Source: a virus (lineage: Duplodnaviria; Heunggongvirae; Uroviricota; Caudoviricetes). From it: a DNA stretch of 28,156 nt. The stretch is taken from positions 1 to 28,156 of IMG/VR virus record IMGVR_UViG_2802429240_000006; one strand, 5' to 3'. Positions 1-27,964 of the stretch are shown piece by piece. Both the position numbers and the translations under genes were made by a program. Each line of letters starts with the position of its first letter. The first letter of the stretch is position 1. The notes beneath the pieces were generated by a model. That model saw only the letters and a list, made by a program, of their open reading frames with translations, ran no database searches and was not told where the DNA came from.

Positions 1-1068
1 TTGCAGCAGGAGTATATTGCTGAATACACCCGCTCCGGTATATCTCCGGTGGCATGGTGTGAAGCAAGGGGACTGAATTACGCAACAGCCCGTCGTTACA
101 TCAAAAAACCTCCGAAAAATGCGCAGGCAGAATTGCGCAAAACTGCGCAAAAAAGTGCGCAGAAAAAACCTGCGCAGACTGCGCAAAAGCGGAACGGAAA
201 ATCTCAGAAAAAAAAGTCAGTATCCGATGCGTGCCTGAATGAGGGCGATGCGGAAGAAATTTCATTCTGTCCCGATGAATTCGGTATTTCAGACCAGCAG
301 GCGAAATTCGCAATGCTGGTTGCCCAGGGGAAAAAACTCGTTGAGGCATATCGCCTGGCAGGATACGAGTCAGAGGGGAATGCGGCCTACGTAACCGCCA
401 GCCAGCTCCTAAGAAATCCTAAGGTTTTTCGCGCTATCAGCTACTTCCGCAATCAGTACCAGAAACGCTATACCGCAGACCTGGATTTACTGGTGAGTCA
501 GTTGATGGCCATTGTCCAGGCCGACCCCAATCAGTTGGCACAATTTCGCCGTGTTAACTGCCGTTATTGCTGGGGCGAGAATCACCTCTACCAGTGGCGT
601 GATATTGCAGAATTCGATAAGGCAGCGGCACAGGCCTCCAGAGATGGCAAACCCGAGCCGGAATATGGAGGCCTTGGCTTTGTTGATAACGCCATACCCA
701 ATCCGGACTGCCCGAAGTGCTGCGGTGAGGGAACGGGGCAGCTTTATATGGCTGATACCACTCTGCTTGATGGGGATGCGCGGCAATTATATGCAGGGGC
801 AAAGCTCGGAAAATTCGGCGTTGAGATCCTGCTGGAGGATAAGGCTGCCGCCCGGCGTGAACTTATCAAGCTGATAATGGCGACGAAAGGAAGTTCTGCT
901 GGTGGTGCAACTGACAGTCGCAATGATCTGGAGCTTGAAGGACTGAGGCTTCGCAACGAAAAGCTACGCACTGAGATTGAAAACCTCAAAAAAGGCGTGG
1001 GTGGTGAGAATAACGAAATAATTATCCACAACTCTCTGCCGATGCCGGGAGTGGATAATGTCGATTGA
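1..1068 (+). CDS. Terminase small subunit, possibly 5'-truncated by window edge
   Basis: ORF runs from base 1 (TTG); N-terminal HTH-like region, A/Q/K-rich linker, conserved small-terminase-like segment (MLVAQGKKLVEAYRLAGY), Cys-rich CxxC...CxxCC segment, C-terminal coiled coil; overlaps the next gene (ATG at 1058). Confidence 0.55.
   Translation: MQQEYIAEYTRSGISPVAWCEARGLNYATARRYIKKPPKNAQAELRKTAQKSAQKKPAQTAQKRNGKSQKKKSVSDACLNEGDAEEISFCPDEFGISDQQAKFAMLVAQGKKLVEAYRLAGYESEGNAAYVTASQLLRNPKVFRAISYFRNQYQKRYTADLDLLVSQLMAIVQADPNQLAQFRRVNCRYCWGENHLYQWRDIAEFDKAAAQASRDGKPEPEYGGLGFVDNAIPNPDCPKCCGEGTGQLYMADTTLLDGDARQLYAGAKLGKFGVEILLEDKAAARRELIKLIMATKGSSAGGATDSRNDLELEGLRLRNEKLRTEIENLKKGVGGENNEIIIHNSLPMPGVDNVD
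120..185 (+). repeat. Six copies of the hexamer TGCGCA spaced 9-15 bp apart inside the 5' part of the small terminase gene
   Basis: Read directly: TGCGCA at 120, 134, 144, 156, 171, 180; encodes the peptide repeat (x)AQK. Confidence 0.5.
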
Positions 1069-2386
1069 AATCTACCTCCCAAAACCTCATGAGGGGCAAA
1101 TAGCTGCATGGACGGCGGCAATAGAGGAACGCTTCCACGCGGTATGCTGTGGTCGTCGCTGGGGTAAAACGGTGATGCTGGTGAACATCGCTACCAGTTT
1201 CGCTACGCGGAAATTTGCCGTTCCTACCACCGGGCAACTTATCGCGGGTAGGGTGGGGATTTTTACCGCGCAATACCGCCAGTACCAGGAAATCTGGGAT
1301 GAAATTAGCGCCGTTCTGCAACCGCTGATCCTCAGTCAGTCAAAAAATGAAAAGCGCATCATTCTCCGTAATGGGGGGCGCATCGACTTTTGGGTAACGG
1401 ACAATAACAAACTGGCCGGGCGTGGGCGTAAATATCACGCTGTGCTGATTGATGAGGCCGCATTCACTAAATCGCCGGAAATGCTCGAGGAAATCTGGCC
1501 CCGAGCGATACGCCCGACGCTTGTCGATTACCGCGGCTGTGCGTGGGTATTTTCCACACCAAACGGTATCGACGAGAGCAATTTTTTCTACGCGATATGC
1601 CACGATGAATCCCTGGGATTTGTTATGCACCATGCGCCAACTTCATCGAATCCGTATATTCCGAAAGAAGAACTGGAGGAAACGGAGAAGAAATCCGATC
1701 CGCGCGTCTGGCAGCAGGAATATCTTGCAGAGTTCGTAGACTGGTCCAAAGACGCGTTACTCGATGTCGATAAGCTGCTGGTGGACGGTCAACCAATTGA
1801 GATGCCGCCGTACTGCGACATGATTTTCGCAGTGATGGATACAGCGCTGAAAGGCGGGACCGAAAATGATGGTACTGGCGTGGTGTATTTCTCTTATGAG
1901 TCAACGTATTCGGACGAGCCAAAACTGACGATTATTGACTGGGATGTGACGCAAATTAAAGCGTCATTGCTTCCTGAATATATCCCCGGCGTTTATGACA
2001 ACCTCGAGCGCCTCGCGAAATTATGCCGTCCGCGTCTGGGCAGCCAGGGAATTTTTATGGAAGACGCCGCGATGGGGGCAATCCTCAACCAGAAGGCGGA
2101 AACCGAAGGCTGGGATATGACGCCGATTAAATCGGCACTAACCAGCAAGGGCAAAGACGAACGGGCGGTGATGGCATCCAGCTACCACTATCAGGGGATG
2201 TGCAAAATCGTCCGGGAGGCTTACGACAAGACCGTTTCATTCAAACGCACCACCGCAAACCACCTCATAAAACAAATCGCCGGGTTCCACCTGGCAGACA
2301 AAGACGCGCATAAACGTGCTGATGACCTTTTCGATTGTTACACCTATGGATTGATCATCGCGCACGGTAATTACGCGGCGTTGTAA
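1058..2386 (+). CDS. Terminase large subunit
   Basis: 442 aa; Walker A-like GRRWGKT near N-terminus; position directly after the small subunit with translational coupling. Confidence 0.8.
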   Translation: MSIEIYLPKPHEGQIAAWTAAIEERFHAVCCGRRWGKTVMLVNIATSFATRKFAVPTTGQLIAGRVGIFTAQYRQYQEIWDEISAVLQPLILSQSKNEKRIILRNGGRIDFWVTDNNKLAGRGRKYHAVLIDEAAFTKSPEMLEEIWPRAIRPTLVDYRGCAWVFSTPNGIDESNFFYAICHDESLGFVMHHAPTSSNPYIPKEELEETEKKSDPRVWQQEYLAEFVDWSKDALLDVDKLLVDGQPIEMPPYCDMIFAVMDTALKGGTENDGTGVVYFSYESTYSDEPKLTIIDWDVTQIKASLLPEYIPGVYDNLERLAKLCRPRLGSQGIFMEDAAMGAILNQKAETEGWDMTPIKSALTSKGKDERAVMASSYHYQGMCKIVREAYDKTVSFKRTTANHLIKQIAGFHLADKDAHKRADDLFDCYTYGLIIAHGNYAAL

Positions 2387-2401
2387 AAAATCAGGATATT
2401 T

Positions 2402-3829
2402 TTGATGGCAGAGATCGAGATTACTGGCGGCCTCGGTTCAGCACTGATGCATATTCTTGAGGCTGAAGAAATTCAGCCGGGAACCGACACTGGCTATGAA
2501 TTGTGTAAGCAGCTGTGGCAATTCCATCCTCTGGGCGGAAAACTTGTCGAAAAACCCATACTGATGGCGATGTGTAAGCCGCGCCAGTATAACGTGGAGA
2601 CAGACCCTGACGAGAGGGTTGTGAGGCGTTTTCAGGAGGTATGGGAACGCATGAAGGTCAACGAGAAGATTAAAAATCTGTTTTTTCTGTCTCGTTGCTA
2701 CGGTGCCGCAGCGATCGGCGTGGGCACCGACAGCGTTCCATGTCGTGAACCGCTTCCGACGTTCGGACTGACAGAAGATGACGTGTATATCAACGCGTGG
2801 GACCCGTTGAACGCTTCCGGTTCGATGGTGACTGACCAGAACCCCAACAGCCCGTTTTTCCAGGAAGCCAATAAAAAACTGAAGATTGGTGGGAAAGACT
2901 GGCATCCGTCACGCACACTGAAAATCTTCAACGGCACACCGATTTATCTGGAGTTTCAGAGTTCATCGTTCGGATTCACCGGACGAAGTGTGTTTCAGCG
3001 CGTTCTTTATTCCCTGAAATCCTATATCAACACGATGGAGGCGAATGATCTCGTCAGCCAGAAGGCGGGCGTACTGGTAGCTAAAGTTGTGCAGTACGGT
3101 TCGAAACTTGACGGGATCATGGCTGCCGCCACGGGACGAAAAAGGGAAAACGTCAAAGAGGCAAAAAATAAAGGTGTGCTTAGTATCGGGAAGGATGAGG
3201 ACGTTACCTCGCTAAATCTACAAAACATCGATGGTGCGCTAAACGCTGCACGCGACAATATTATTTCCGATATTGCGTCAGGGAGTGACGTTCCGGCGAT
3301 CCTCATCAAAGAGGAAGCCTTTTCGAATGGTTTCGGTGAGGGGACCGAAGATTCGAAAGCCATCAGCCAGTATATCGATGGTGTACGCCAGCAGATTGAA
3401 CCTGTGATGGATTATTTCGAACGCCTGGTGCAGTACATCGCCTGGAACGAGGAATTTTATCAGTCGCTGAAAAATGATTACCCGGACATCATAACTGATG
3501 ACTATAAAACCACGTTTTACCAGTGGCGACGTGAATTTACCGCGACATGGCAGGAGCTGGTGGAGGAGTCGCCGGACAAACGCCGGGAAAGCGACAGTAA
3601 AGTGATTCAACAGGCGATAGCACTTTTCTCTGCCGTGTCGCCACAGGTTGATCCTGAAAACCGTGCCGCCGTCACTGAATGGCTGGCAAGCCTTGTTAAT
3701 GCCACGCAAACCTATGGCGAAGCTCCACTCATCATTGATGTGGACGCGCTGGCGAATTATGAACCACCGAAGCAGGAGACGCCTGATGGCAATTTCCAGC
3801 CGGGCGGTGAGGAAGAAGAAACGGATTAG
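2402..3829 (+). CDS. Portal protein (putative)
   Basis: 475 aa directly downstream of large terminase; acidic C-terminus (GEEEETD); gene order. Confidence 0.6.
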   Translation: MMAEIEITGGLGSALMHILEAEEIQPGTDTGYELCKQLWQFHPLGGKLVEKPILMAMCKPRQYNVETDPDERVVRRFQEVWERMKVNEKIKNLFFLSRCYGAAAIGVGTDSVPCREPLPTFGLTEDDVYINAWDPLNASGSMVTDQNPNSPFFQEANKKLKIGGKDWHPSRTLKIFNGTPIYLEFQSSSFGFTGRSVFQRVLYSLKSYINTMEANDLVSQKAGVLVAKVVQYGSKLDGIMAAATGRKRENVKEAKNKGVLSIGKDEDVTSLNLQNIDGALNAARDNIISDIASGSDVPAILIKEEAFSNGFGEGTEDSKAISQYIDGVRQQIEPVMDYFERLVQYIAWNEEFYQSLKNDYPDIITDDYKTTFYQWRREFTATWQELVEESPDKRRESDSKVIQQAIALFSAVSPQVDPENRAAVTEWLASLVNATQTYGEAPLIIDVDALANYEPPKQETPDGNFQPGGEEEETD

Positions 3830-12317: not shown

Positions 12318-12391
12318 ATGTAAAAACAGCAGCTCAGTTTCGTGAGCTGCGTAAATGCACGACGCCGGGAGGTGTATTGAATGTCAGGTAA
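12089..12391 (+). CDS. -1 frame C-terminal extension of the tail chaperone (frameshift product)
   Basis: ORF in -1 frame relative to the chaperone, begins just after the T8 run and ends overlapping the tape measure start at 12381. Confidence 0.5.
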   Translation: MRLVDKHTGADGADDAGSQWNVEQSHFILESYGMDCFIADIEACRQFWRDGEHVISDILDYSAGDGFSDIWANSGLNVKTAAQFRELRKCTTPGGVLNVR

Positions 12392-14369
12392 TCAGATGCC
12401 AGTTCTGACACTGGACGTTAATGAAGAACATCTTAAGCGACTTGAGGCGATATTTGAAAAGTATCGCAACGGGCTGATGATTGGCCCTGCCGGTACGCCG
12501 CTTAAAATACCTTCAAATACAGGTCCGGCAGGTGGCGCCCGGCAGACAACCACAGGCGGAGAAGCCAATCAGGCTCCCAGGAAACCATCTTCACCCGAGC
12601 CAGTTTCGGCTGCTTCCACTGATGGACGTTTAAGGGATGAAAAAGGGCGCTTTGTTGGAAGCGGGAAAACACCTGATTCGCTGGTGAACAACTATAAAGG
12701 TCGCGGCGAAACGATGTTTGATAAGTACCTCAACGGGCTGGGTAAAAACGCTCAGGGGACACTGAAAACTTACAAACAGATCAATTCAACGCTTAAAACG
12801 ACTAATTCCCGGTTAAAAAGCCTGTTTAAAACCACGGTTTCGTGGGGGGCGAAAATAGCTGCAATAGGGGTTGCGGGGCCGTTTGGCTACAGCTATATGG
12901 CAAGTAAAGTCGCAGCACAGTATAGCGTGGCTCAGGGGTTAGGGATGGAAACCGCCCAAATGCAGGCCGCACGTGCCACCTATTCGCCATATTTTTCTGG
13001 CACAGAAGAACTGGTTCAGCATCTGGCGAACGCACAGAAAAATCCAAACGATCCAAACTATGCTGGTCTGGTTAGTCTTGGAATTGATCCGCGAGATGGT
13101 GCAGCAAAGAATCTGCCCAAACTTATGAGTGCGCTTGCATCTCTAGTTAAGCAATATAAAGGTTCAGGACTTACTCAGGGGATTCTCAACGGACAAGGAC
13201 TTGGATTTGTTGATGTCGCGACAACTAACCAGGTGGAAGCGAATCTGGACAAGATCCCCCAACTGAATGAGAAATTTGCAGCAAATACCCGGTTACTCGG
13301 CGCTTACCTCACGCCAGCTATGCAGTCAGGTTATCAGGACACGGTGAGTAACCTGATGGTAAATGGAAACAGAATATCAAATTCCTGGTATGCAGCTCTC
13401 GCCAGATATAACCCACTAATCAGAGGTGCATCAGATGGACTGACATCCAATATTGAAGGTTTTCTGAATGGTGGAAATTTTAAAAAAATTCTCACTGAGG
13501 CTGGCGAAGGGCTGGAGAAACTTGGTAAGTGGCTGAATAGCGAACAATTTAAAAATGATCTTGACGATTTTTCTCTGGCGGTGAGTCGGATTGCAAAAGC
13601 AATATGGTCAGCTATCAAATGGATCGGTGGGGAAGATAAATATCTCCCCGGAACCGGAGTTGGTGCTGAACAGGCAGATCCAGTTCTTGCGGCATTTGGG
13701 AATAAATATCTCGGTGGTGCGTTGCCGGGAGCAAACCCGATGACAAATCAGTATACGGGTGAGTTTTATAAACAGGATGATGTATATAAAAATTACCGTA
13801 TGCCTAATGATTTAAAGAGAAATATTCAGAACTTTGTAGAGCAAGCCAATAATACTTATCGACTTCCTAAAAATATGATGTCAGCTATCGCGGAGGTTGA
13901 ATCTTCGTGGAATCCTCTGGCAAGAGGAACTCCAGATGAAAAAGGTAGATTCGCTAAGGGGTTGTGGCAATTCTGGGATAGCACCGCAAAACAGTATGGT
14001 CTGGTGGGTGATGATGTTTATGACCCAAATAAATCCACTCTTGCGGCTGGCCGCTTTTTAAATGATCTGAATCGGCGTTATAAAGGCGATGTGGCAAAAA
14101 TGCTTACGGCATATAACGGAGGTCGTATTGATAGAGATGGAAATCTAAGTTTGAGAATGGAGACTGTAAAATATTTAATTAAATTATTGCCTCAGATACA
14201 GGGAGCCTTGGATCAACACCCTGGTATTATGAATCAGCTAAGAAATGCCAGAGATAACCTTCAGGGTGCTGGCAAAAATGCCCGCGCAATAATTGAGCTT
14301 CAGGTGCGACAATCGCCTGGTTCCGACATACTGGCACAACTCGCCGGAACGCAACAAATACCGGGGTAA
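12381..14369 (+). CDS. Tail tape measure protein with lytic transglycosylase (SLT) domain
   Basis: 662 aa directly after the frameshifted chaperone; SLT signature AIAEVESSWNP ... GLWQF ... AYNGG at about nt 13860-14130. Confidence 0.7.
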   Translation: MSGNQMPVLTLDVNEEHLKRLEAIFEKYRNGLMIGPAGTPLKIPSNTGPAGGARQTTTGGEANQAPRKPSSPEPVSAASTDGRLRDEKGRFVGSGKTPDSLVNNYKGRGETMFDKYLNGLGKNAQGTLKTYKQINSTLKTTNSRLKSLFKTTVSWGAKIAAIGVAGPFGYSYMASKVAAQYSVAQGLGMETAQMQAARATYSPYFSGTEELVQHLANAQKNPNDPNYAGLVSLGIDPRDGAAKNLPKLMSALASLVKQYKGSGLTQGILNGQGLGFVDVATTNQVEANLDKIPQLNEKFAANTRLLGAYLTPAMQSGYQDTVSNLMVNGNRISNSWYAALARYNPLIRGASDGLTSNIEGFLNGGNFKKILTEAGEGLEKLGKWLNSEQFKNDLDDFSLAVSRIAKAIWSAIKWIGGEDKYLPGTGVGAEQADPVLAAFGNKYLGGALPGANPMTNQYTGEFYKQDDVYKNYRMPNDLKRNIQNFVEQANNTYRLPKNMMSAIAEVESSWNPLARGTPDEKGRFAKGLWQFWDSTAKQYGLVGDDVYDPNKSTLAAGRFLNDLNRRYKGDVAKMLTAYNGGRIDRDGNLSLRMETVKYLIKLLPQIQGALDQHPGIMNQLRNARDNLQGAGKNARAIIELQVRQSPGSDILAQLAGTQQIPG

Positions 14370-23095: not shown

Positions 23096-26000
23096 ATGTC
23101 TGTAGTGATATCAGGTGCGCTGATAGATGGCGCAGGCATCCCTATGTCCGGATGCCACATAATTCTGAAATCCCGGGTAAACACCTCAGAAGTGGTGATG
23201 CGCACAGTTGCTGACGTGGTGACAGGAAACTGTGGCGAGTACTGTTTTAAGGCGCAGACCGGAAAATATTGCGTATATCTGAAACAGGACTGGCGCGATG
23301 AGTACTGTGTTGGCGACATTGCTGTATACGATGACTCAAAGCCCGGCACGCTGAACGACTTTCTGACTGCCCTTGATGAAGGCGACCTCAAACCCGACGT
23401 GGTGAAACGCTTTGAGGAAATGGTGGCGCAGGCGCAGCAGAGCGCGGAAGCGGCAGCGGAAAGCGAACAACAGGCCGGGAAACATGTTGCTGATGCGCAA
23501 CAAATCAAGAGCGACTGCGAGACGCTGGCGGATAACGTACAGCAGAATGCAGAAGCCGTTGCCGAAGATAAAAAGCAGGTGGCACAGCTGGCATCATCTG
23601 CCACACAGGATGCGGCACGCGCAGAGCAGGCCGTCAAGGATGCCGACCTGATAGTCCAGAAAGCGGTCGATAAACTTGGTGAAGCTGCAACGCTGACCGG
23701 TGAGGCAAAAGCCAGCGCCGAAGCGGCAGCAAAAAGCGAGCAGAGCGCGAAACAGCACAGGGACGAGGCGCAACGGATAGTTGATGACCTGAAGGGAACC
23801 AACGCCAGCACGACGCAAAAAGGCCTGGTGCAACTCTGTAGTGATACAGACAACGACAGCGAAGAACTGGCAGCCACACCAAAAGCCGTCAAAGCCGTCA
23901 TGGACGAGACGAAAACAAAAGCGCCGCTGGACAGCCCGGCGTTCACCGGCACGCCCACCACACCAACCCCGCCGGACGATGCGACCGGGCTGGAGATGGC
24001 GAACGCGGCATTTGTCCGCAAACTGCTCGCCACGCTGGTTGACTCATCACCGGAAGCCCTCGACACGCTGAACGAGCTGGCAGCGGCACTGGGCAATGAC
24101 CCGAACTTTGCGACAACAATCATGAACGCGCTGGCGGGTAAACAACCACTCAGCGACGTGTTAACCGCTATCAGTAATCTGGAAGAGCGGGCAGATAACC
24201 TTCTGTGCTTTAATCAGGACGGGAATGCTTCACTGTCTCCGCTGTCGGAGAAAGCCCGGTCACTGCTGGCACAGGCCACAGTGGAAGCCATGCGCAATGA
24301 GCTTGAGCTGAAAAGCGCAGCGGTAAGGGACATTCAGACAGACATTTACGACAGCACGGAAGGCCGTGTTGCGCTTCCCGGTGCGTATGGTTACGGAATG
24401 ACGGACGCCGGAGCACGTTCAGTTATTGCCAGCGATATGGCGACTGTAGCCAGAACTGCACACAACCTGCACCCGGGACGGTATTACACCTTTTCCACAC
24501 AAACGGAAGAGACGACCGGAATAACAGAAATTATCTGGCTGGATAACAACTGGGGCGACAAAACCAGCCAGACAGCAACAAAGCTGGTTCTGTTTTTTGG
24601 AAAAGACGGACGGATTCTTATGACCGTTCGTGGCGATAATATCTCCGCCCCGGTCACCTGGACGAATCTGACGCCACAACTTGGCAATGCAGCACAGAAG
24701 GATGCGCAGGAGAATATTTACGACCGCACCGAAGGTCGTCTGGCGATTCCCGGCATGTTCGGTTTCGGGAAAATATTTTCCAGTAGCGACAGAACTGAAT
24801 TTAAATCAGGGACTGATTTTCTCAGGTGGGTAAAAACAGCAAAACCCGGTCGTTATACCGTATTTGCGGACACAAATGTGGTGGTACCTGGCATACAGAC
24901 AAACGGTGTTATTGAAATTATCTGGCCACAACCTAAAACCAGCCCGAATGATGAGTATGCCTATAAGATAATTATTTATTACGGTGTTAATGGTCATATT
25001 TATTATAACCGTTGCGCGGTGGCATCAGATGGTGGTTATCTGGTTGGCTGGGAAAACCTGAAGGTTGATGAGGCTTCACTCAGGGCACTGATTGAAGCCC
25101 GCGCACCACTGAAAAGTCCGGCACTGACCGGAACTCCGACAGCACCAACACCGCCGGATGATGCAGCAGGTAATGAAATAGCCAATGCGGAGTTTGTCCG
25201 CAAACTGCTCGCTGCGCTGGTTGACTCATCACCTGAAGCCCTGGACACGCTGAACGAGCTGGCAGCGGCGCTGGGTAATGACCCGAACTTTGCGACAACG
25301 GTCACTAATGCACTGGCAGGTAAACAGCCGCTTAATGACGTGTTAACGGCTGTCAGCCAGATAATACCGGAAGAAAACACGCTGCCTTATTTCAGTGAAG
25401 AGGGCCGGATTTTACTGGCGCAGCTGTCAGAAAAAGCCCGCGCATTACTGGCACTGGACACACCTGAAGCCATGCGCACGGAGCTTGAGCTGAAAGCGGC
25501 TGCGACGATGGAACCCCAGAGCGATATCCGCGACCGTACACCGGGCAGGCTGGCGCTGTCCGGTATGCATGGATTTGGTCAGGCATTTGCCAGCACTGAA
25601 GCCCTGGCGTTTGAGGGACTGTCTGATTTCGTTGAATGGCTGAAGAAAGTCACGCCGGGGCGGTATGCGGTCAGTATTACAGATTCATCACAACTGCTTA
25701 CCGGTACCACGCAATTTAACGGCATTATTGACGTGATGTGGTCCCCGTACGCCAACAGTGAATCTGACACAGTCCGCAAATTTAAAACCCTGATGTGTTA
25801 CAACCAGTATTATCAGGGTGAACACTGCATTCACTATATGCAGTACCGGTACAACGACAGCGATAACAGCTGGAACATGTCATCGCGGGTAGTTGTCTAC
25901 GACGGAGATTCACTGGCGTACCTGTTGTCCAGGATGGCGGGCTCAGGCTCATATTTCAAATACCCGGCAGTGGGTGTTCCGGTGCTGGCTGTTTATCGCG

Positions 26001-26239
26001 GAACAACTTCCGGGGATAAAGAAATCAAAATTGGCCTGGGTGATGTGGTGCAGGGGTCACAACTGGGCGGAGTTAATCTTTCGTGCACAATATCTTCTGC
26101 CGGGCCTGGCTCTTACGGTTCAACACCAAGTGCAGGAGCAACAGGGTACACTTTTCCGGGGCGTTATATGGCGTTATCCGGGGTCAGGGACTCTTACGGA
26201 ACAAGCGGTCGTATCTGCCTGTTTGTGCGCATCGAGTAA
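23096..26239 (+). CDS. Side tail fiber protein, lambdoid Stf-like (second fiber)
   Basis: 1047 aa; N-terminus MSVVISGALIDGAGIPMSGCHIILKSR...VYDDSKPGTLNDFL closely resembles the E. coli prophage Stf N-terminal domain; conserved fiber motif LAATPKAVKAV; two internal duplicated modules. Confidence 0.8.
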   Translation: MSVVISGALIDGAGIPMSGCHIILKSRVNTSEVVMRTVADVVTGNCGEYCFKAQTGKYCVYLKQDWRDEYCVGDIAVYDDSKPGTLNDFLTALDEGDLKPDVVKRFEEMVAQAQQSAEAAAESEQQAGKHVADAQQIKSDCETLADNVQQNAEAVAEDKKQVAQLASSATQDAARAEQAVKDADLIVQKAVDKLGEAATLTGEAKASAEAAAKSEQSAKQHRDEAQRIVDDLKGTNASTTQKGLVQLCSDTDNDSEELAATPKAVKAVMDETKTKAPLDSPAFTGTPTTPTPPDDATGLEMANAAFVRKLLATLVDSSPEALDTLNELAAALGNDPNFATTIMNALAGKQPLSDVLTAISNLEERADNLLCFNQDGNASLSPLSEKARSLLAQATVEAMRNELELKSAAVRDIQTDIYDSTEGRVALPGAYGYGMTDAGARSVIASDMATVARTAHNLHPGRYYTFSTQTEETTGITEIIWLDNNWGDKTSQTATKLVLFFGKDGRILMTVRGDNISAPVTWTNLTPQLGNAAQKDAQENIYDRTEGRLAIPGMFGFGKIFSSSDRTEFKSGTDFLRWVKTAKPGRYTVFADTNVVVPGIQTNGVIEIIWPQPKTSPNDEYAYKIIIYYGVNGHIYYNRCAVASDGGYLVGWENLKVDEASLRALIEARAPLKSPALTGTPTAPTPPDDAAGNEIANAEFVRKLLAALVDSSPEALDTLNELAAALGNDPNFATTVTNALAGKQPLNDVLTAVSQIIPEENTLPYFSEEGRILLAQLSEKARALLALDTPEAMRTELELKAAATMEPQSDIRDRTPGRLALSGMHGFGQAFASTEALAFEGLSDFVEWLKKVTPGRYAVSITDSSQLLTGTTQFNGIIDVMWSPYANSESDTVRKFKTLMCYNQYYQGEHCIHYMQYRYNDSDNSWNMSSRVVVYDGDSLAYLLSRMAGSGSYFKYPAVGVPVLAVYRGTTSGDKEIKIGLGDVVQGSQLGGVNLSCTISSAGPGSYGSTPSAGATGYTFPGRYMALSGVRDSYGTSGRICLFVRIE
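23925..24175 (+). repeat. Internal direct repeat copy A within the Stf gene
   Basis: Near-identical to copy B, e.g. 24036-24118 vs 25216-25298 differ at only a few positions by eye. Confidence 0.6.
25105..25355 (+). repeat. Internal direct repeat copy B within the Stf gene
   Basis: See copy A; encodes KSPALTGTPTAPTPPDD...VDSSPEALDTLNELAAALGNDPNFATT. Confidence 0.6.
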
Positions 26240-26252
26240 CGGGGAATAAAAC

Positions 26253-26825
26253 ATGAAAATCAGAGCGGTAAAAGGCATCAGAAACGCCCATTATCTCGAA
26301 AATGGTGCGGTTGACTGCGAGGTGTTATTTGAAGGTGAAACGGAATTCGTCCTGTATACCGCCATGCAGGATGATACCGCCCCGACAGGCCAGCGCATCT
26401 GGGAGGAGTTACAGAGCGGCAAATGGGGTGAAATCGCCCCGTTCACCGTCACGCCTGAACTTATCGCAGCGGCAAAAGATGCCAAAAAGATGGAAATCGA
26501 GGCATGGCGCGCAGAACAGGAGTCGCAGCCGTTCACGTTCGAATGGAACGGTCGCACCTGGAATGCTGGCCCCGACTCAATGGCTCGTCTTTATCCGGCA
26601 GTAATGGCATCAAAGTCTGACACAGCGCGAAAAACCATGGTATGGGGCGATGCGGAAAACCAGCAGGTGAAACTGTCGATGCAGAAACTGGATGAGCTGC
26701 TTACTGCAATGGCGCAGGCACAGGTCGATCGCAATGACGAGATATATCGTCGCCAGCGTGAGATGAAGGATGAACTGAATAGTCTGGAGGATTTGAATTC
26801 GGTTAGGAATTTTATCGTGGAATAA
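26253..26825 (+). CDS. Putative tail fiber assembly / chaperone protein for the Stf-like fiber
   Basis: 190 aa immediately downstream of Stf with GGGGAA RBS; no Tfa C-terminal motif recognised, so the call rests on position. Confidence 0.4.
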   Translation: MKIRAVKGIRNAHYLENGAVDCEVLFEGETEFVLYTAMQDDTAPTGQRIWEELQSGKWGEIAPFTVTPELIAAAKDAKKMEIEAWRAEQESQPFTFEWNGRTWNAGPDSMARLYPAVMASKSDTARKTMVWGDAENQQVKLSMQKLDELLTAMAQAQVDRNDEIYRRQREMKDELNSLEDLNSVRNFIVE

Positions 26826-26830
26826 CAGAA

Positions 26831-26865
26831 GCTGCGGCACGTCGTATGCAAGAACGTGCCGCAGC
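26831..26865 (+). terminator. GC-rich hairpin after the last phage gene (terminator-like, no T tract)
   Basis: GCTGCGGCACGT-11 nt-ACGTGCCGCAGC, 12 bp perfect inverted repeat starting 6 nt after the stop codon. Confidence 0.35.
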
Positions 26866-27133
26866 TGGCTGACGTACGTTCGATAATGCGAAACTGAATG
26901 AAAGTCAGCCGGAAATAATCTTACATAATTGTTGAGAAATTATTCAACTCATAGATTGCTTATTTCTGCCTGGATTGGTCTGAAATAGTCCCGAAATTTT
27001 CTCTAAAAAACTCGAAAAAAATGGTAACTAATTGAATGCATTAATATGCAATGGTATGTGTTTGGGATTAAAAGATGAGCGTAATTTTGCTTAACACATT
27101 AATTTAAAAAGGGTTTCTTGTTTGTTGACGAAA

Positions 27134-27159
27134 ACAGGAATCGTGTTCGGTCTCTTTTT
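27134..27159 (+). other. Sequence resembling the 3' end and terminator of sRNA gene sdsR (ryeB); candidate prophage attachment core (attR side)
   Basis: ACAGGAATCGTGTTCGGTCTCTTTTT matches, from memory, the 3' terminal ~26 nt of SdsR with one mismatch; resemblance degrades upstream of ~27125. Confidence 0.35.
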
Positions 27160-27174
27160 ATCTATAAAGCCAGT

Positions 27175-27205
27175 TTGATAATGGCATTACTGCTTTTCCC
27201 TCACT
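27175..27205 (+). promoter_or_regulatory. Candidate sigma32-type promoter for pphA
   Basis: TTGATAA (27175-27181), 16 nt, CCCTCACT (27198-27205), loosely like the heat-shock consensus; pphA is reported to be heat-shock regulated. Confidence 0.25.
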
Positions 27206-27307
27206 GACTTCACAATCAACCATAACACACACTCTACTGCTTCAGTCCAGGCTTTTTTAACATTTTTGTTAAAATAATGTGATCTTATGCGCGGGAGTAA
27301 GGAATTG

Positions 27308-27964
27308 ATGAAACAGGCAGGCCACATCTATCAGAGAATTGATGGTAGTCAGTGGCGACATATTTGGCTGGTGGGTGATATTCATGGCTGCCTGGCGCAA
27401 CTGCGAGAGAAATTATGGTTCTGCCGGTTTGACCCGTGGCAAGACTTGTTAATCTCGGTTGGTGACGTTATCGATCGTGGCCCGGAGAGTTTGCGTTGCC
27501 TGCAATTACTGGATCAACGCTGGGTCAGGGCGGTAAGAGGCAATCATGAGCAGATGGCGATGGATGCGCTGGCATCGCAGCAGATGTCTTTGTGGTTTAT
27601 GAATGGTGGCGACTGGTTTGCCGCACTGACAGAGCACCAACGTGAGCAAGCGAGAAGGGCGCTGGAAAAGTGCGGGTCTTTGCCGTGGATAATTGAATTA
27701 AGCTGTAGTAGCGGACTGCATGTCATCGCCCATGCGGATTACCCCAATGATATTTATGAGTGGCATAAGGAAGTCGATCTGCATCAGGTGTTGTGGAGTC
27801 GCTCGCGATTGCGTGAAGGCCGAAAAGGGCAGAGAATTACCGGCGCTGATCATTTCTGGTTTGGTCATACGCCATTACGCCATCGCGTAGATATCGGTAA
27901 CTTGCATTATATTGATACCGGCGCGGTCTTTGGTGGAACACTCACGTTGGAACGACTCCAGTAA
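27308..27964 (+). CDS. pphA: Serine/threonine protein phosphatase 1
   Basis: 218 aa from ATG 27308 with AAGGA RBS; metallophosphatase motifs GDIHG, GDVIDRG, GNHE; sequence recognised as E. coli PphA (PrpA). Confidence 0.9.
   Translation: MKQAGHIYQRIDGSQWRHIWLVGDIHGCLAQLREKLWFCRFDPWQDLLISVGDVIDRGPESLRCLQLLDQRWVRAVRGNHEQMAMDALASQQMSLWFMNGGDWFAALTEHQREQARRALEKCGSLPWIIELSCSSGLHVIAHADYPNDIYEWHKEVDLHQVLWSRSRLREGRKGQRITGADHFWFGHTPLRHRVDIGNLHYIDTGAVFGGTLTLERLQ

Follow-up and report, generated by a model that had tools for sequence, protein, structure and literature searches.

What stands between the last phage gene and the first host gene at the right end of this prophage, a small RNA gene or the piece of one that integration leaves behind? 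The window (the whole stretch of DNA analysed here, 28,156 nt) ends with a 190-aa DUF4376 protein gene of a tail-fibre module (26253–26825, plus strand; PF14301, E = 4e-15), followed by host pphA, a serine/threonine phosphatase gene and the first host gene right of the prophage (27308–27964, plus strand; PF00149, in synteny with yebW, yebV and rsmF). The open reading frame list and Pfam agree with an earlier note on this DNA that the last phage gene ends at 26825 and that pphA starts at 27308. The note had read the interval as the attR of a phage that integrates into the 3' end of the small RNA gene sdsR (ryeB), a reading now supported by empty sites, a free-phage attP, a fully bounded prophage and polymorphisms in lysogens. 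We give a probability of about 95% to what we consider the best explanation, that 26826–27160 is the attR of a prophage integrated into the sdsR/ryeB terminator, between yebY and pphA. The comparisons below establish the position of the junction, the relationships among attP, attB, attL and attR, the integrase family and the crossover interval.

A fragment of sdsR next to pphA

The earlier note had pointed, at 27134–27159, to a match with the 3' end of SdsR. The match is exact: ACAGGAATCGTGTTCGGTCTCTTTTT agrees in all 26 positions with the end of the annotated E. coli K-12 sdsR on its 3' side (positions 2130–2105, minus strand, of the K-12 locus L001). It occurs once in the 28-kb window and on one strand only, as do the 11-mer ACAGGAATCGT and the 8-mers GGAATCGT and TTCGGTCT.

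Of the sdsR terminator, these 26 nt (plus strand) cover the 7-nt loop, the U-tract and the 3' arm, together with just two nucleotides of the 5' arm, the rest of which is absent. What the note had called the terminal hairpin and U-tract is therefore half right. The U-tract is there, but of the terminator hairpin (11-bp stem, 7-nt loop, U-tract) attR keeps only the loop and the 3' arm, which do not fold: the attR sequence has a folding energy of −5.3 kcal/mol (z = +0.31), compared with −15.8 kcal/mol (z = −3.5) for intact K-12 sdsR. Given the complete identity to K-12, the sub-threshold Rfam scores described below and the missing fold, we treat 27134–27159 as an sdsR 3' fragment and not as a gene.

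Empty sites place the junction at 27133/27134

The host part of the window is ∼81%–85% identical to E. coli. An exact look-up of the PphA protein returned five loci, two of them empty (L085 and L086; yebY directly followed by pphA) and three occupied (L087–L089), in which a tail-fibre protein (truncated by the end of the contig in L088 and L089) is followed by a DUF4376 protein and then by pphA. From 27134 to its end, the window is identical to L085, L086 and L087 at 1023 of 1023 positions, and to an Escherichia ruysiae representative, the nearest species genome found, at 932 of 1023 (91% nucleotide identity, with PphA 92% identical in amino acids). By these identities, the host is a non-coli Escherichia lineage. 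A host-specific pattern of 56 nt had no exact match among the GTDB species representatives.

We aligned the junction of the window with the same-lineage empty sites, E. ruysiae, K-12, an E. coli attL and a phage attP. Both empty sites have the order yebY–sdsR–pphA with a full sdsR (114.4 bits in Rfam). The window equals the empty site of its own lineage from A27134 rightwards, and leftwards carries unrelated AT-rich DNA where the empty sites have the sdsR body; the junction in the occupied sites L087–L089 is identical to that of the window. Alignment to the K-12 sdsR/ryeA locus, a check that the earlier note had proposed, gave exact identity from 27134 rightwards to pphA and none leftwards. 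A second proposed check, the comparison with the empty sites L085 and L086 of the same lineage, put the prophage boundary at 27133/27134, the last phage-specific base being 27133. The note had let the resemblance to sdsR fade left of ∼27125 into AT-rich DNA; the AT-rich DNA upstream is real, but the limit is not, because identity to the host site stops at 27133/27134. A weak likeness at 27127–27132 (GAC-GAA versus GACCGAA) belongs to the phage attP arm and not to the host.

A 27-bp core with crossover confined to 11 bp around the terminator loop

The att core common to attP and attB spans 27 bp (27134–27160) and reads ACAGGAATCGT[G/A]TTCGGTCT[C/T]TTTTTA, with two positions polymorphic between phage and host, 27145 (G/A) and 27154 (C/T). 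When attL was compared by BLAST with empty E. coli sites, the match ended precisely where the core block ends. We mapped the crossover in seven E. coli lysogens sampled at both ends. At attL, all seven have the host T, then ACAGGAATCGT, then the phage A...T; at attR, all seven have the phage A, then ACAGGAATCGT, then the host G...C. The free phage PP818812 has A...T in its core. These reciprocal polymorphisms in 7/7 lysogens confine strand exchange to 11 bp, 27134–27144, a segment that holds the 7-nt terminator loop AGGAATC (27136–27142). In the SdsR terminator, ACAGGAATCGT corresponds to the complete loop AGGAAUC plus the two adjoining bases of each stem arm.

Immediately to the left, at 27127–27133, the phage carries an imperfect copy (GAC-GAAA) of the terminator 5' arm, with GACGAAA where the host has GACCGAAT; this is presumed to be the left core-type half-site. 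Its imperfection accounts both for the faint sdsR resemblance left of the core and for the failure of attR to fold into a terminator. Integrases of the lambda family bind inverted core-type sites that flank an overlap of 7 bp, and cut at both ends of that overlap. By analogy, the two stem arms would be the core-type sites here and the loop would roughly coincide with the overlap, whose exact 7 bp we infer from that model.

The integrases of the E. coli lysogen JNEC-KY178 and of PP818812 are 99.7% identical to each other, contain the lambda Int arm-binding (PF09003), central (PF22022) and catalytic (PF00589) domains, and are ∼41% identical to HK022 Int. Read from the int genes of these homologous elements, the cognate recombinase is a lambda-type tyrosine integrase.

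The phage arm is the left arm of attP

The phage side of attR, 26826–27133, is without counterpart in the empty sites. It is identical at 305 of 308 positions to the left arm of attP in PP818812.1, and at 304 of 308 in JNEC-KY178. A DUF4376 gene also precedes attP in PP818812 and attR in the E. coli lysogens, and this adjoining gene is only 76%–87% identical between the same elements, so that the att module, at ∼99%, is conserved as a unit. In PP818812.1, the order is gp70 (DUF4376-like), P arm, core, P' arm and integrase, with ∼130 bp between the core and the converging integrase gene; this arrangement identifies the region as attP and the window as carrying its left (P) arm. PP818812.1 was deposited as "Actinobacillus phage vB_Apl-pPE4". 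Its integrase is 99.7% identical to those of the E. coli prophages and its core is the enterobacterial sdsR terminator; the Actinobacillus pleuropneumoniae host label looks doubtful, and the genome may instead be that of an Escherichia prophage.

Two hairpins lie in tandem at the outer end of the P arm. The one directly 3' of the last phage gene (26830–26866) is strong (−27.1 kcal/mol, z = −5.6), has a T-rich tail on the minus strand only, and gave a sub-threshold Rfam match (32 bits) to the 3' hairpin of the Shigella small RNA CssrB; from its structure, it could act as a terminator. The second (inverted repeat I2; 26867–26910, mapped from PP818812.1 [L003] 3564–3607) is kept in all arm variants, including the Salmonella element ZC-S1_prp, which has a homologous hairpin, and is the best hairpin in the arms of RM8385 and 97-3250. 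We considered and discarded universal conservation of the first hairpin, since what the RM8385/97-3250 arm variants and the Salmonella element share is the second. As a pair, the hairpins sit opposite int across attP, the position of tI/sib in lambda.

Farther in, candidate arm-type integrase sites (TCCCGAAATT ... ACTCGAA) lie at 26989–27016 (plus strand), and a 27-nt composite repeat (D1) is common to both arms of attP. Within the 28-kb window, the 9-mer CCCGAAATT has a single exact copy, at 26990 in the P arm; the P' arm has two exact copies, arranged in tandem. Repeats of this type number one or two in the P arm and three in the P' arm. With one mismatch allowed, CCCGAAATT was not enriched across the window (eight found versus 10 expected); the only informative copies are the exact ones that cluster in attP. 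Between the core and the P' repeats there is a match to the IHF consensus; none was found in the P arm of the window. ZC-S1_prp, whose integrase is 73% identical, has the same core followed by a conserved IHF-consensus match and three tandem CYCGAAWTT repeats, the rest of the arm having diverged. On the strength of the repeats and this one cross-genus footprint, we regard the P and P' repeats as candidate arm-type integrase sites.

The other end of the prophage

The earlier note had looked to the other prophage end for the same core beside an integrase and for an intact sdsR. Both were seen in a homologous E. coli prophage: in JNEC-KY178, the element is fully bounded (∼48 kb) and reads yebY, sdsR, core, integrase, excisionase ... 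DUF4376, core, pphA. Its content includes Rac-like early genes (recE, recT and ralR), lysis genes, terminase, a baseplate-type tail and tail fibres. The sdsR at its attL is intact, scoring 118.1 bits, with a terminator fold of −15.8 kcal/mol, the same as in K-12. All seven E. coli lysogens with the same module have the core repeat adjoining the integrase at the other end. Positions 1–26825 of the window run collinear, at 85%–97% identity, with the terminase-to-DUF4376 part of the JNEC-KY178 prophage (its right 26 kb), apart from a tail-fibre segment that has been replaced; this collinearity identifies the window as the late half of such a prophage together with its right end. The attL and int of this copy lie beyond the window, and the same-lineage contigs end inside the prophage; judging from the E. 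coli lysogens with the same module, this copy probably has a rebuilt sdsR and an intact int.

In our best explanation, a temperate phage of ∼48 kb, with Rac-like early genes and a contractile-tail late module, integrated site-specifically into the intrinsic terminator of sdsR. Its lambda-type tyrosine integrase recombines the 27-bp core common to attP and attB, with strand exchange within ACAGGAATCGT, across the 7-nt loop of the terminator hairpin; the two stem arms would supply the inverted repeat used as core-type binding sites. Integration would rebuild a full sdsR at the far (attL) end, where the phage would supply the loop-distal half of the terminator and leave the fold energy unchanged; what stays at attR is the loop with the 3' arm and the U-tract, fused to the P arm of the phage.

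Alternative explanations

A match of 26 nt is short, and its shortness is all that speaks for a chance match or a generic terminator similarity. It is complete, it continues as host synteny for >1 kb (1023/1023 to the same-lineage loci), it is the only copy in the window, and the core is nearly invariant beside sdsR across Enterobacteriaceae; we give chance no credence. The earlier note had also entertained an intact but divergent sdsR, with the prophage boundary further left. Permissive Rfam thresholds lend this some appeal, with SdsR_RyeB (RF00111) aligning to 27078–27159 (22.1 bits, E = 0.18) and SraC_RyeA (RF00101) to 27163–27060 on the minus strand (26.9 bits). The respective cut-offs are 38 and 37 bits, however, genuine sdsR copies score 114–118 bits, and at gathering thresholds Rfam called nothing in the 26826–27160 region; because both scores are sub-threshold, the segment is a fragment and not a gene. 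In the alignment, the conserved sdsR 5' body (78 nt upstream of the terminator loop, including the seed region) is fully replaced in the window. Similarity between the phage arm and the K-12 sdsR body is at the level of chance: a local score of 9 was reached by 182 of 2000 shuffles, and global alignment gave 40/78 identities versus 38.5 ± 2.8 in shuffles. With a terminator that does not fold and the same DNA 99% identical to the attP arm of a free phage, a divergent sdsR is extremely improbable.

A different doubt concerns function: 26826–27160 may be a genuine att half-site that belongs to a fixed, excision-incompetent remnant, or to a prophage whose ends were parted by rearrangement, such that 27134–27160 no longer works as attR. 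Individual copies can indeed be defective, as in E. coli 97-3250, where the integrase at the sdsR site is frameshifted. In E. coli U90 (NZ_CP068035.1), the attR arm lies at 2.402 Mb (plus strand) and the attL arm with the integrase at 2.979 Mb (minus strand), 577 kb apart and on opposite strands; this points to a large inversion of the chromosome, one endpoint of which would be in the prophage. Residual DNA of 1–3 kb separates sdsR from pphA in many species, and the int end of the prophage studied here lies outside the window. Yet the visible 26.8 kb form an uninterrupted late-gene array collinear with a bounded E. coli prophage, a phage deposited as a free genome has a P arm 99% identical to this one, and empty and occupied sites with otherwise identical flanks coexist in one lineage, which argues for recent mobility. 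We consider such a loss of function unlikely and keep to the attR of a prophage in the sdsR terminator.

Occurrence and the insertion hot spot

The yebY–sdsR–pphA spacer was uninterrupted in 5189 of 5426 complete E. coli genomes. The attR arm of the window was matched (over at least 80% of the query) in 228 of the 5426, and the attL arm with its integrase likewise in 228. One int/att module thus occupies ∼4% of complete E. coli genomes as well as at least one other Escherichia lineage.

The core beside sdsR hardly varies among species representatives of other Enterobacteriaceae. Half-sites with unrelated DNA directly 5' of ACAGG were present in two Citrobacter species, Silvania, Scandinavium and Enterobacter asburiae, indicating that different elements have used the same site. 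Within this group of representatives (L014, L026, L028, L052 and L077), the half-site lies 174–237 bp upstream of pphA in L014, L026 and L052 and ∼1.3–1.8 kb upstream in L077 and L028. Many other species representatives have 1–3 kb of extra DNA between an intact sdsR and pphA. This pattern of occupancy is that of an insertion hot spot.

Such a hot spot is already known. According to later papers that cite the original work (Balbontin, Figueroa-Bossi, Casadesus and Bossi, J Bacteriol 2008, via PMC7380047 and PMC3333887), the last 23 bp of ryeB, internal to ryeA, are a recurrent integration site in Salmonella and the attachment site of Salmonella phage PhiW104, and lysogeny there lowers ryeA and raises ryeB expression. 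Elsewhere, ryeB is listed among the small RNA genes known as phage targets (Bobay et al., PMC3603311), and "RyeB" is already a target label in an island-naming scheme (PMC10111431). The last 23 bp of sdsR correspond to 27137–27159 in the window, inside the 27-bp core and overlapped by the crossover interval 27134–27144. The junction is therefore of a known kind, at the published ryeA/ryeB hot spot, and it had been recognised correctly in the earlier note. The known picture of how such phages integrate is unchanged. Our results confirm that phages also use the sdsR/ryeB 3' terminator as a live attachment site outside Salmonella. Annotators should not call the 26-nt fragment beside pphA sdsR, and should look for the real gene at the other end of the prophage.

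Comparison with known integration systems

The host locus and the target are the same as those of the PhiW104 site, as far as that site is described in the sources that cite it, and the repeated use of the site is shared too, here in Citrobacter, Enterobacter, Silvania and Scandinavium representatives. As these sources place the Salmonella site inside ryeA, lysogeny would alter ryeA. Compared with their description, the host here is a non-coli Escherichia, the phage may differ, and the crossover is narrowed to 11 bp by natural polymorphisms in E. coli lysogens.

Lambda and HK022 share with this system the set of Int domains (an arm-binding N-domain, a central and a catalytic domain), an xis adjoining int, and long attP arms. 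Where the lambda P' arm has H' and then P'1–P'3, the P' arm here has an IHF-like site and then three tandem repeats, with related repeats in the P arm. The hairpins opposite int across attP likewise have a positional counterpart in lambda tI/sib; the arm-site, IHF and sib-like functions are assigned by this resemblance and are putative. In contrast to the gal–bio intergenic attB of lambda, the target here is the terminator of a small RNA gene, and the core half-sites are the arms of an RNA hairpin.

Integration into the 3' ends of tRNA and tmRNA genes, for example by P4, P22 and HP1, offers a second parallel (Williams 2002, as cited in PMC3603311). There, too, the crossover falls in the loop of a stem-loop (anticodon or T-loops in tRNA genes), whose dyad symmetry gives inverted core sites, and because the phage carries a copy of the 3' end of the gene, one junction regains a complete gene and the other keeps a 3' fragment. 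The present target differs in being an Hfq-dependent regulatory small RNA with an overlapping antisense gene and a downstream co-transcribed gene. Although sdsR is rebuilt, its cis-regulatory context (the ryeA promoter and the read-through into pphA) is split.

Possible regulatory consequences of integration

SdsR and RyeA behave as a toxin–antitoxin-like pair, and pphA depends on read-through from sdsR (PMC6610125), which would make lysogens at the sdsR site natural mutants of this circuit. We located what remains of ryeA through its +1 position, which is fixed by the primer "BHIA+10R" (PMC6610125): the K-12 ryeA start (L001 2067) aligns with window position 27211. The retained 5' part of ryeA (∼78 nt, 27134–27211, minus strand) is fused to phage DNA, and the block upstream of it (27212–27250, minus strand) aligns with the K-12 ryeA promoter region, with CAACCATAACACACACTCTACTG invariant. 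The SraC_RyeA score of 26.9 bits is below the gathering score of 37 bits, and what derives from the host is limited to the promoter-homologous block and ∼78 nt at the 5' end of ryeA. A simple scan of 26700–27400 for sigma-70 promoters and terminators, whose loop-size rule passes over the hairpin at 26830–26866, found no consensus sites, so activity of the ryeA promoter is presumed from homology to the K-12 promoter studied in PMC6610125. At 27168–27189, after AAAGCCAG, the window lineage and E. ruysiae have ∼16 extra bases (TTTGATAATGGCATTA...) that are absent from E. coli; placed between the ryeA start and the terminator of sdsR, they make the RyeA 5' region longer than that of K-12.

All consequences for regulation are putative. 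At attR, the ryeA promoter might drive a chimeric RNA of ∼300–385 nt into the phage P arm, ending at the hairpins at 26910–26830. SdsR would be ∼48 kb away from the cis-antisense ryeA promoter and without RyeA as its partner in cis, in agreement with the published rise in ryeB. pphA would be cut off from the sdsR promoter. With the terminator of sdsR lost, it would lie downstream from the late operon of the phage, on the same strand.

A more ambitious proposal, that integration rewires the SdsR/RyeA/pphA circuit and couples phage control to it, with roles for int, the ryeA promoter and pphA, we consider quite improbable. If it were true, read-through from int, which is transcribed towards sdsR, would replace RyeA as the antisense partner of SdsR at attL, and SdsR, which depends on sigma-S, could act with RNase III to destabilise int mRNA, starting at its 3' end, a host-small-RNA version of lambda sib retroregulation that would act in the prophage state. 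The orphaned ryeA promoter at attR would yield a chimeric RNA that is antisense to the last part of the late operon, and pphA, without the sdsR promoter and terminator, would come under phage late read-through.

Other features of the prophage

Two segments of the window gave no BLAST match in the JNEC-KY178 prophage: 23597–26303, which covers most of a 1047-aa tail-fibre gene, and 12889–14315, part of a 662-aa open reading frame at 12381–14369. Both look like mosaic replacements of host-range and tail modules. Finally, the only RNA match in the window at gathering level was a full-length match to sRNA-Xcc1 (RF02221; 18195–18280, minus strand; 70.9 bits against a gathering score of 53, E = 3e-11); it is part of the prophage, flanked by baseplate/tail genes and with an antA/antB-like region nearby.
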